A DNA stretch of 16,473 nucleotides from Nanobdellota archaeon (lineage in GTDB: Archaea; Nanobdellota; Nanobdellia; Woesearchaeales; JAHWHD01). Positions within the stretch are counted from its first letter, which is position 1. Every line of letters begins with the position of its first letter. The position numbers and the translations under genes were made by a program. This document shows, piece by piece, positions 3,001-4,380 of the stretch. The DNA is taken from assembly GCA_034722435.1 (NCBI GenBank), contig JAYENX010000016.1, positions 1 to 16,473 on the forward strand, read 5' to 3'. The notes under the pieces were generated by a model. That model worked only from the letters and a program-made list of their open reading frames with translations, made no database searches and was not told the origin of the DNA.

Positions 3001-3385
3001 TGTCGACAAAGTAGGTTCCAGTTGATTTATCTAAAGTAACATATTCGGCGATTGGTTTTGTTATTGTTATATTTAGATAATTAATTTCAATCAGACTTGT
3101 ATCTGAGATAAACTCTTCAGGTTGTAATGTTAAAGCAATTGAACCTGCGAGGTTACTATACACTGTCTCTGTAACTGTTTCTTGAACTGTTGTAGTCTTA
3201 GTGTGATTATCCTCTACAATATCAAGAACAGCTCCACCAGTTATTTGAGGCGCAACGTCAAAGTTACTAACATAGACGCTCGTTATCGTCGTTAATATTG
3301 CTATCATTAGAAGAATTCTTACTAAAGTGGAAGTTGGCTCTACTTTAACCTTGCTTCTCTTTCCGGTTTTTCTTCTAGTACTCAT
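1..3385 (-). CDS. Large membrane-anchored surface glycoprotein with at least two LamG/concanavalin A-like domains (3'-truncated by the window edge, >1128 aa)
   Basis: Read codon by codon from ATG 3385-3383 to base 2 with no in-frame stop. N-terminus is MSTRRKTGKRSKVKVEPTSTLVRILLMIAILTTITSVYVS (basic tail plus one TM helix). Two LamG-type units follow: TGLVGYWKFNE...GAYSFDGTGDYV...WHHLVAV...IYIDG...DEVAIFNRVLSATEI (about 1530-905) and TGLVGYWKLNE...GAYNFDGTGDYI...WHNVVVT...LYVDG...DEAMIFNRSLSSTEI (about 760-165). Many N-x-S/T sequons. ATG overlaps the TGA of the upstream gene. Confidence 0.88.
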   Translation of the reverse strand, partial: MSTRRKTGKRSKVKVEPTSTLVRILLMIAILTTITSVYVSNFDVAPQITGGAVLDIVEDNHTKTTTVQETVTETVYSNLAGSIALTLQPEEFISDTSLIEINYLNITITKPIAEYVTLDKSTGTYFVDNKTYGSGFGYGVEGVKEISPSLDVDINITTELGSYMETVTVTNAIAETILVDDSFTYEVISVMDKTGNELPLTSVSVFTRDTTLRVSTDYTANETGYGPGYISNNTLEIVLDLSEFDVQATESGNLTTSLLYNNQTLKQSTKYIEVTEIIETENGTESPIEEVVVEEELIQNITIEEPLEEVEDLVEVLPLIPEPFSVVKQNITTLRANLRSVLPAGIELANLAESNDKYDLSFELENGLSGFSIQEAREKGFVKINGLDNVSKIKHVKFIAPTQNNFVSNIFAINSLSLTNATVTLPKTTDVSAIYRCGFYDFESDECMLEWQDIDLEFEQNQTHVWFTVYGFSAYVAVTLEDVEQSSSVVADNSVDLLSTITLNCSSDTAGTLANFTLYGTFPGTWQSIETKTSSGSSDTKTFDVDLSTYLGSTTIKDSSYTWNCLVCDTDAVCNWSSSNNTLSGWNLGTYSTSKLNVSSIHLGEDDEQELSQNGANTTGLVGYWKFNEDSTDSSGNGNDGTIAGDVANATGKLNGAYSFDGTGDYVSIADDNSLDLTDLAIAAWVKVGSSNTGWRALIVKDNVNEVGTRKLFDLKTSQDGNNGVPRFTIWDGSDVLLVNADSSINDDQWHHLVAVRDAGSNLYIYIDGILNNSASDTSSGAIDSSTQTTIGAVHNTAYDAQHMIGTVDEVAIFNRVLSATEIQTIYNQQKGNYPIEATYESKIFNTGTTAIWTNLTWDEELAYGEEIDDGTFNETGLVGYWKLNEDATDSSGNGNDGSIIGDVSNVTGKINGAYNFDGTGDYIEVSDDNSLDFGTNDFSLVAWFNAKNTSYSQHPHIFSKQDPEQSTEWTLQFLNTNGNLIFRANAVSQLTDTFDYFDDNWHNVVVTRNSGTFYLYVDGSEKDSASASLTLTNSNPLRIGRRSAAYDGYFNGDIDEAMIFNRSLSSTEISNLYKRGALKLNLSTRSCNDASCDGETYDLECTSATSCDISSLTNNQYFQYKVNFETE

Positions 3386-3834
3386 TTATTCCTCTTCTTT
3401 TGTCCCCTATTGTAGACTGTCCAAATTGTTCTATCATTTCGGTTTGTTAGAACAGCAATCTCGTGATAGGTCAAATGTAGTTTTTCTTTGAGATACTCGA
3501 CAAGTACCTCGAGAACTGATAATGCTCTGTCGAGAAGAACGCTAAGAGGTATGAAAACCTCTGATTTTTGTAGAACAGGTTTTGATGTTTTTAGTCTCTT
3601 TTTTTGTGCTCGGTTGTATACAGTCCAAATAGTCCTGTCATCTCGGTTTGTCATGACAGCAATTTCGTGATATGTGTAGTGCATTTCTTCTTTAAGATAT
3701 TCAACAAGAACTTCAAGAACAGAAAGAGAACGATCAACAAACAAAGAAACAGGAATTCTCACAAAGTTGCCACTAGGATTTTCTGACTTTCCTACATATA
3801 ATGACCCCTCTTTTTTATTCAAATCTCTATCCAA
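3382..3834 (-). CDS. Tandem-duplicated helix-turn-helix DNA-binding protein (two 54-aa sigma-70 region 4-like HTH units)
   Basis: Residues 27-80 and 95-148 are 43/54 identical (LSVLEVLVEYLKE..H.TYHEIAV.TNR.DRTIWTVYNR.QKKR). The pattern TYHEIA...NR...TIWTVYNR fits an HTH. Start is TTG, with an in-frame TAG 7 codons upstream, so the exact start is uncertain. Confidence 0.8.
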   Translation of the reverse strand: MDRDLNKKEGSLYVGKSENPSGNFVRIPVSLFVDRSLSVLEVLVEYLKEEMHYTYHEIAVMTNRDDRTIWTVYNRAQKKRLKTSKPVLQKSEVFIPLSVLLDRALSVLEVLVEYLKEKLHLTYHEIAVLTNRNDRTIWTVYNRGQKKRNK

Positions 3835-3891
3835 TTTAAAACACTCAAATATCTAACAAACCGAAATTTACTTACATTGTAAGTACACCCA

Positions 3892-3906
3892 TATTTAAAG
3901 TTATCG
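3892..3906 (-). promoter_or_regulatory. Putative BRE-TATA promoter of the HTH/LamG operon
   Basis: Minus strand reads CGATAA-C-TTTAAATA (TATA 3899-3892), 6 bp upstream of palindrome copy 3869-3885 and about 58 bp upstream of the TTG. Confidence 0.55.
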
Positions 3907-3955
3907 TTTTTTGACAGTAGAAATAAGTTAATACTCACATAGTAAGGACAACCGA

Positions 3956-3963
3956 TATATAAA
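3956..3963 (-). promoter_or_regulatory. Second putative TATA box upstream of the HTH gene
   Basis: Minus strand TTTATATA preceded by AAGAAACC, 7 bp upstream of palindrome copy 3932-3948. Confidence 0.4.
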
Positions 3964-4380
3964 GGTTTCTTTTTAAAGAAAAATAAAGGAGATACTTACA
4001 TAGTAAGTATAATATATACCTACATAGTAAGTGAAATACTTACAAAGTAAGTATACTTACATTGTAAGATAAAAGTTAAATAAATTAACAAAGACGGGGA
4101 AATTAAGATACTTACATAGTAAGAAACCTACAATGTAAGTAAAATACTTACAAAGTAAGTACAAAATAAGCAAAAAGCAAAATAAATCAATAGGCGAATA
4201 CTTACATTGTAATGGAGAAATAGAGAATAATACCTACATTGTAAGTATGAAGAGGTTTAATACTATACCTACATTGTAAGAAATGATTAAAAAAACGCTA
4301 ATTTCATAGTGCCTAAATAGCACAATAATTAAATTGTTTAATTAGATTTTTAGAAGATTTAATTAAAATTTAATAGAAAA

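Follow-up and report, generated by a model that had tools for sequence, protein, structure and literature searches.

What does a small helix-turn-helix (HTH) protein do when its gene is preceded by a dozen copies of a single palindrome, and which genes would such a protein control? The question is raised by contig JAYENX010000016.1 (C16) of the Nanobdellota archaeon assembly GCA_034722435.1, which comprises 1,299,201 bases and is 94.5 % complete. The whole contig, 16,473 nt in length, was analysed and is referred to here as the window; its genes are archaeal and include those for topoisomerase VI A and B, a RIO kinase, a KH/Dim2-like protein, DnaG, a HerA-like ATPase and a class I tRNA synthetase. 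The analysis described below suggests that the HTH protein, of 150 amino acids (aa), is probably a dedicated factor that binds the palindrome, represses its own gene together with an overlapping gene for a giant surface protein, and probably also acts at a second array of the same sites. The features on which this reading is built are the following.

3382..3834, minus strand: tandem sigma-70-region-4-type HTH protein, 150 aa, two units 78 % identical
3869..4282: array A, twelve copies of the 17-bp palindrome TACTTACA-W-TGTAAGTA, irregularly spaced (16-63 bp centre to centre)
3892..3899, minus strand: TATA box TTTAAATA of the proximal HTH promoter, with a 6-nt gap to the operator 3885..3869
3956..3963, minus strand: second TATA-like box TTTATATA, 7 nt before the operator 3948..3932, read from the sequence
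2..3385, minus strand: 5' part of a giant surface-protein gene, 1128 codons, overlapping the HTH gene and running off the contig

When the window was scanned with the pattern TACTTACNNNGTAAGTA, allowing up to two mismatches, 18 matches were found against 0.08 expected from shuffles. Eleven of them lie in array A (at 3869, 3932, 3993, 4017, 4037, 4054, 4109, 4125, 4145, 4231 and 4266), and with a further site at 4199, which carries three mismatches, they make up the twelve palindromes that a first-pass annotation of this DNA had placed just upstream of the HTH gene. The overlapping or abutting pairs that it had singled out (4037/4054 and 4109/4125) are real, and its AWW centre is correct for the window, where column 10 is often A; the site of the relatives is a perfect 8-1-8 palindrome, TACTTACA-W-TGTAAGTA, with a single W at the centre. 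The spacing within array A follows no uniform phasing, and the array is the largest seen in this analysis, the maximum among 72 other loci of the same protein family being nine sites. Seven more palindromes form array B, to which this entry of the earlier annotation does not refer, giving a total of 19, and a scan of the assembly returned these two arrays only, with zero further copies outside them at up to one mismatch. Neither array has the make-up of a CRISPR array, as array A is irregular and the 'spacers' of array B are copies of each other (a 53-bp repeat with 96 % matches), and no cas domains were found among the window open reading frames (ORFs) scanned. Across the 19 sites, 28 departures from dyad symmetry are uncompensated and 0 are compensated, and such one-sided changes fit the recognition of half-sites by a protein rather than a hairpin.

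The protein encoded next to array A consists of two HTH units that are identical at 45 of 58 aligned residues, close to the 80 % given in the first-pass annotation, and that share the same predicted recognition helix, R-T-I-W-T-V-Y-N-R. Its TTG start is uncertain, and residues 1-17 are disordered in the AlphaFold2 model, which was computed from 47 homologues (pLDDT 89, pTM 0.80) and displays two equivalent units, each with a short strand and four helices, joined by a well ordered linker. The only two strands of the model (26-28 and 94-96) belong to different units and probably pair with each other across them. Each unit superposes on sigma factor region 4 (Foldseek and VIA-align: 5fgm, 6jhe and 1rp3; Z 8-10, root-mean-square deviation 1.5-2.6 Å), including the DNA-bound domains 4 of SigW and sigma-E, as well as on NarL, DosR and RcsB (Z 7.8-8.1) and on the archaeal regulator EnfR (8hno_A, residues 4-51; Z 9.1, root-mean-square deviation 1.2 Å over 48 residues, 23 % identity). 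At the sequence level the signal is weaker: the Pfam Sigma70_r4_2 match scores 20.7 bits, below the cut-off of 25.7, the NCBIfam match to sigma-70 region 4 is also sub-threshold, and sequence and profile searches of the PDB with the HTH protein returned nothing at E<0.1, EnfR not being retrieved by profile. No match to Sigma70_r2 was found in Pfam or NCBIfam, the protein consisting of two region-4-like units only, and none to TFX_C at E<=0.01, in line with a model that holds just the two HTH units. The close homologues are from Candidatus Woesearchaeota/Nanoarchaeia, and the family as a whole counts 418 confirmed loci in GTDB and >1000 homologues in metagenomes.

The two units would form a single-chain pseudo-dimer, one molecule of which would occupy each 17-bp palindrome, with the half-site centres ~11 bp, or one helical turn, apart. 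A single-chain dimer had been proposed from the sequence at the outset, and it gains backing from the two equivalent units of the model and from the occurrence of single-unit homologues beside the same palindrome in related genomes. These relatives, 40 genomes of the same order, were compared with the present one (41 genomes in all), and co-occurrence is given as counts, with no statistic attached, because the genomes are related. Two of them, G001 and G002, are unpublished, and the HTH-side result of G002 was reproduced on the public sequence JAHWHG010000003.1 (L038). The 17-mer is present in 16 of the 40 relatives, always as small clusters or exact single copies, while the expectation for an exact 17-mer, estimated from base composition, is ~0.02 per genome. 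Clusters of at least two sites lie directly upstream of an HTH homologue in ten of 13 cases. The homologue is tandem in G002, G010, G015 and G020, and a single unit of 70-103 aa in G008, G009, G018, G027 and G037 (70-85 aa in the last four), as would be predicted for a tandem form that takes the place of a homodimer. All relatives with at least two copies of the motif possess the HTH family (10/10), and the 12 relatives that have no match to the family at E<=1e-5 were all devoid of the motif. The opposite case, a motif in genomes lacking the family, had been named by the first-pass annotation as one that would refute its proposal. Taken together, the adjacency of the clusters, the co-occurrence and the site shared by single and tandem forms lend comparative support to the claim that the protein recognizes the GTAAGTA half-site.

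A broader set of 72 family loci from GTDB species was searched over 600 nt upstream for the core motif CTTAC-N3-GTAAG with up to one mismatch. At least one copy was found in 27 loci and at least two in 18, where ~0.02 would be expected per locus, and the number of sites varies between relatives from 1 to 12. The loci that do not carry the exact motif belong to more distant subfamilies, and some operators depart from it in sequence but keep its 5-3-5 geometry (CCTAC, CTCAC, CATAC, CTTAT and TACAT-N3-ATGTA), with no tie to residue changes. In 12 more distant homologues the 450-nt upstream windows are largely coding, and most of the proteins have an N-terminal extension. Among motif-linked proteins the recognition helix, R-T-I-W-T-x-Y-x-R-x-x-K-K, is almost invariant in a sample that is biased, as the locus search was seeded on the recognition-helix peptide. 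Of the two expectations formulated initially for the homologues, upstream arrays were found at part of the loci (two or more core copies in 18 of the 72), and the co-variation of half-site and recognition helix gave an uninformative result, the helix being nearly constant.

The same comparison bears on the idea that some other, unlinked regulator uses the palindrome, or that this is a hairpin element of RNA or DNA, the HTH gene being merely a target. The binding of the palindrome by the HTH protein is something that we infer; three of the 13 clusters and several exact single sites are not beside an HTH gene, and the 17-mer can fold into a 7-bp hairpin (-4.1 kcal/mol). However, the absence of the motif from the 12 relatives devoid of the family, the match between a symmetric site and two near-identical recognition helices, the site common to single-unit and tandem forms, and the 28 uncompensated against 0 compensated changes all argue the other way, and this explanation is regarded as very unlikely.

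If the HTH protein binds the palindrome, the effect on its own gene may be read from the layout of the promoter. On the coding strand, the TATA box TTTAAATA is followed after 6 nt by the proximal operator, then by 34 nt and the TTG start; the operator thus lies between the TATA box and the start of the regulator's own gene, the arrangement of a class of archaeal repressors. The box TTTATATA and the operator 3948..3932 appear to constitute a second promoter-operator module. The spacing of TATA box and operator was assessed in 31 non-redundant loci with the pattern TTTAWATA, allowing one mismatch, and with a mirrored control: in 19 of the 31 a box was found whose end is 0-9 nt (mode 6) ahead of the proximal operator, compared with two of 31 in the control, and the gap in the window equals the modal value. 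As the TATA box would be centred near -26, the 17-mer covers roughly -16 to +1. In archaeal transcription, a protein bound just downstream of the TATA box, the usual position of a repressor, blocks the recruitment of RNA polymerase, a mechanism also considered for EnfR; a protein bound to the proximal operator, which covers the transcription start, should therefore do the same.

Such repression would extend to a second gene. The ATG of the giant surface-protein gene overlaps the stop codon of the HTH gene (ATGA, 3385..3382), and the real unit is an operon of the HTH gene and the overlapping giant gene, which the first-pass annotation had missed. The encoded protein has a basic N-terminal tail, a transmembrane helix at residues 17-35 and two Laminin_G_3/ConA-like lectin domains. 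In relatives, an ORF on the same strand overlaps or closely follows nearly every HTH homologue; it is giant in many (800 to >2500 aa, an N-terminal signal or anchor being present in most) and of 150-520 aa in others. Among the neighbours of the arrays in 16 related loci, the HTH gene and the ORF behind it were the only conserved partners found. In two other genomes the tandem HTH is itself the C-terminal tail of a large surface protein (L110, 302-4360; L117, 145-1206), where Disaggregatase repeat or Big_13 domains are followed by a hydrophobic anchor, a polybasic stretch and the tandem sigma-4 HTH. The fused HTH is a cytoplasmic, membrane-tethered form of the regulator.

The protein is thus proposed to repress its own gene and the translationally coupled giant gene, and the ~ten distal sites of array A would probably raise its local occupancy or allow it to bind cooperatively, resulting in a tight and steep switch. 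Cooperative coating or a switch had been suggested from the number of sites, and is a reasonable reading for the distal ones.

Array B and its surroundings indicate a possible second target.

9061..9444: array B, seven copies of the same palindrome at spacings of 105, 50, 53, 53, 53 and 53 bp
9049..9056, minus strand: TATA box TTTAAATA of the RIO-KH-Top6B-Top6A operon, read from the sequence
4748..9016, minus strand: candidate secondary target operon, with sites at the equivalent gap in G001, G002 and G009
9016..8315, minus strand: RIO kinase, candidate target operon
8313..7780, minus strand: KH/Dim2-like protein, candidate target operon
7596..5869, minus strand: topoisomerase VI B, candidate target operon
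5845..4748, minus strand: topoisomerase VI A, candidate target operon
9496..9509, plus strand: promoter GAAAGATTTAAATA, consisting of a B recognition element (BRE) and a TATA box and directed toward RNA-like elements and dnaG; conserved in four genomes, nearest operator 58 nt upstream
10126..11439, plus strand: archaeal DnaG primase (NF003108, 495 bits, cut-off 300), on the far side of the divergent gap that holds array B

The last five sites of array B are phased at 53 bp (five helical turns) within a 53-bp tandem repeat, and in the repeat units the BRE/TATA-like sequence CGAAC-TAAAATAA stands directly 3' of the site on the plus strand. At the other end of the array, 4 nt separate the leftmost operator (9077..9061) from the RIO TATA box; the operator is on the upstream side of this box and covers the BRE position. 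The same protein probably also acts at this divergent gap between dnaG and the RIO-KH-topoisomerase VI genes in the present lineage. The equivalent gap holds one site in G001, two in G002 and four in G009, and sites are absent from the equivalent locus of 27 other genomes, where it was found through a conserved RNA-like block; the target is therefore peculiar to this lineage, and the expansion to seven copies took place within the genus.

Since the sites of array B are upstream of BRE/TATA elements, the effect there could be activation or repression. A different view holds that activation is the main function of the protein, or one of two, and that the distal sites of array A and the modules of array B are upstream activating sites that recruit TBP/TFB and boost the giant gene and the housekeeping operon. 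The sites of array B and of the RIO promoter are located directly upstream of BRE/TATA, where the archaeal activators SurR, TrmBL1 and Ptr2 also bind, and ten of the 12 sites of array A have no neighbouring TATA box. On the other hand, the most conserved feature is the site just downstream of the TATA box (19/31 against 2/31), the position of a repressor, and EnfR, the closest characterized archaeal relative, is a repressor (PMC10570040). A predominantly activating role is accordingly considered rather unlikely.

A centromere- or iteron-like role was also raised by the first-pass annotation. In that case the arrays would be a structural chromosome element (an iteron origin or a centromere or partition site), and the HTH protein would serve it as initiator or bind it as a centromere. 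In favour of this, the genome has such a repeat cluster nowhere else, the topoisomerase VI genes beside dnaG have an array on either side, the three-site cluster of G008 (G008:C9) is 1.6 kb from orc1/cdc6, and the array of G027 is inside a broad region in which the AT skew turns. This G027 region is, however, a plateau of 78-235 kb with no feature at the array, and while the AT skew of the complete 774-kb genome is significant, its GC skew is uninformative, being no better than that of permuted windows, the observed range being reached in 330 of 1000 permutations. Orc1/Cdc6 is distant from the HTH-linked arrays in the three other genomes of four (141 kb in G018, 74-93 kb in G027 and 58 kb in G009), the Cdc6_C match of the present genome is on another contig (C28), and no ParA/ParB or initiator domain was found with Pfam among the window ORFs scanned. 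Moreover, several genomes have two or three separate motif loci, the copy number varies from 1 to 12 and the sites are positioned relative to a TATA box, all of which makes an origin or centromere highly improbable, and this part of the earlier proposal was not upheld. The only clear orc1/cdc6 of the assembly (C28:1-1405) starts within ~200 nt of the contig end, and its upstream region, the likely origin, is consequently outside the assembly.

Beyond the HTH-linked clusters, exact single sites occur upstream of a gyrase A gene next to a small Toprim gene (L035, G040:C20, 7368), between RNase P p30 and TBP (L032, G020:C19, 828), between DUF192 and ribosomal protein S2 (L022, G009:C7, 7348) and beside an ArsR/S-layer-domain gene (L031, G020:C4, 7283). 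The G008 cluster (L024, 537-696), with three sites and no linked HTH gene, lies between a 144-aa ORF and a TrmB-family regulator. Judged by their position, these scattered sites and this cluster are likely to represent small, variable regulons. The neighbours of the single sites are possibly variable regulon members among information-processing genes. The 144-aa ORF was considered as a hidden member of the family and rejected (hhalign probability 1 %).

Several observations weigh against a dedicated autorepressor. Twelve plus seven sites are more than a simple repressor needs, and their number finds no explanation in the analyses run; part of the count in array B may be due to recent, possibly neutral, duplication of the 53-bp units, which are 96 % identical. 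Another factor could be the binder, binding by the HTH protein being deduced, and the sign of regulation is read from position alone. In addition, 45 of the 72 family loci do not carry the exact motif, including that of a 64 %-identical homologue in G014, which limits the pairing of protein and site to a subfamily, and the near-invariance of the helix meant that co-variation with the half-site could not be shown.

A further-reaching scheme is a long shot. The regulator and its 19 sites, if of high affinity, would make up an ultrasensitive, possibly bistable switch that couples the display of a giant host-attachment protein to the expression of topoisomerase VI, RIO, KH and DnaG. The arrays, 5 kb apart, might be bridged into a loop around the topoisomerase VI operon, and in the relatives with fused forms the regulator might be kept at the membrane by the surface protein until a signal, for instance contact with a host, sets it free. 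If true, this would be an archaeal contact-sensing pathway made from a sigma-factor domain.

The genome encodes three tandem-HTH paralogues of the protein, at C5:7976-8332 (minus strand, L015), C5:19377-19730 (minus strand, L016) and C58:43064-43444 (plus strand, L014), and these are followed by ORFs of 2660, 2982 and 406 aa. Within each paralogue the two units have diverged from one another; the pair on C5 retain the R-T-[IV]-W-T helix in unit 2 alone, and the copy on C58 shows divergence in both units. No recurring perfect palindrome was found upstream of the three; the non-palindromic sequence AAAGTATTA, which shares AAGTAT with the palindrome half-site, occurs there four times in 1.7 kb, always in the coding orientation, against 0.09 expected at the genome-wide rate for a motif that was chosen post hoc. 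The pattern would fit a rule by which reading a symmetric site takes a protein that is itself symmetric, and is offered as a lead only.

On its distal side array A is bounded by a transfer RNA gene.

4385..4470, minus strand: tRNA-Cys(GCA) with a non-canonical intron of ~30 nt (around 4432-4402)

ARAGORN finds this tRNA only after in silico removal of the insert, and both ARAGORN on the intact sequence and Rfam miss it. For a second tRNA-like stretch at ~4500-4712 (minus strand), no single deletion recovered a tRNA call. In either intergenic region, Rfam searches at gathering and E-value thresholds gave nothing convincing. Downstream of the promoter GAAAGATTTAAATA, positions 9623-9750 (plus strand) contain two units, conserved in G001, G002 and partly in G009, each of which starts with CACCTCTTTT and ends in a GC-rich hairpin and a T-run; they may be small RNAs or terminators. 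Farther on, a block of ~155 nt (9803-9957, plus strand) is present in one copy per genome and was found by BLASTN in 134 of 201 genomes of the order. Its indels of 1 nt, and an insertion of 25 nt in G009, make an RNA gene very probable; it has no Rfam match, and the RNase P and signal recognition particle RNAs are on contig C13. The 3' half, where conservation is highest, forms a long hairpin with GCCCG/CGGGC as its closing pairs and ACA after it, and at a guess it resembles an H/ACA guide RNA.

The lifestyle of DPANN archaea is one of attachment to other cells, for which their giant surface proteins are prime candidates; no means by which these proteins are controlled has, to our knowledge, been described. 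No paper in the searched literature contains the motif strings, in agreement with the initial impression that the motif was unfamiliar from any described system, and nothing on point was found there for giant proteins and regulators of DPANN archaea. The family described here offers a small regulator of wide distribution, an operator defined to 17 bp and promoters of constant layout, which are experimentally tractable without cultivation, and its fused forms raise the possibility of a signal path between cell surface and genome. To this the window adds the largest array seen in this analysis, a second array at housekeeping genes of DNA topology and replication, and paralogues with diverged units and non-palindromic upstream repeats.

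Archaeal RNA polymerase does not use sigma factors. The protein resembles bacterial sigma-70/ECF factors (PF08281) in its region 4 fold and weak sequence signal, and sigma/anti-sigma operons in that the HTH gene stands next to, and in some genomes is fused to, that of a membrane protein; in contrast to sigma factors, it has no region 2, all family scores are below their cut-offs, and two region-4 units would sit on a palindrome instead of one unit on a -35 box. Woesearchaeota were noted by Castelle et al. 2021 (PMC8204110) to be rich in 'sigma-70' genes whose mechanism was unclear, and the present locus offers a concrete role for these genes, which had been left unexplained. Within archaea, a sigma-70-region-4-type HTH is shared with the Tfx family (Tfx MTH0916; EnfR, PDB 8HNO), of which EnfR/TON_1525 from Thermococcus onnurineus binds as a dimer to a pseudo-palindrome over the codh core promoter and acts as a repressor (PMC10570040). 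Unlike these proteins, the HTH protein lacks the acidic alpha+beta TFX_C domain and the long 'stem' helix, and dimerization is replaced by tandem duplication within the chain or, in relatives, by bare units of 70-85 aa; its site has 17 bp against 36 bp for EnfR, and its partner is a giant surface-protein gene, whereas that of EnfR is a metabolic cluster.

LuxR/GerE/NarL-type regulators have a related four-helix HTH, and their dimers read inverted repeats one helical turn apart; they differ from the present protein, which has no receiver or ligand domain and whose dimer would be covalent. The fused L110 and L117 forms, single-pass surface proteins with a DNA-binding module attached on the cytoplasmic side, are reminiscent of the membrane-tethered one-component regulators ToxR and CadC, but their topology is reversed, with a C-terminal HTH and an enormous extracellular part, and the protein of the window is unfused. 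Operators between the TATA box and the start are known for the archaeal repressors MDR1, Phr, LrpA and the TrmB family, and Ss-LrpB has a multi-site autoregulatory operator. The present system is like these in its predicted autoregulation, in an operator that abuts the TATA box downstream and in clustered or phased sites that would allow cooperativity, and unlike them in its fold family, in having up to 12 sites rather than 1-3, and in the coupled giant adhesin-like gene. In kind it is an autoregulated HTH factor with promoter-overlapping operators; what is new is a regulator made of sigma region 4 only, in tandem or as bare units, coupled or fused to a giant protein and served by unusually large arrays.

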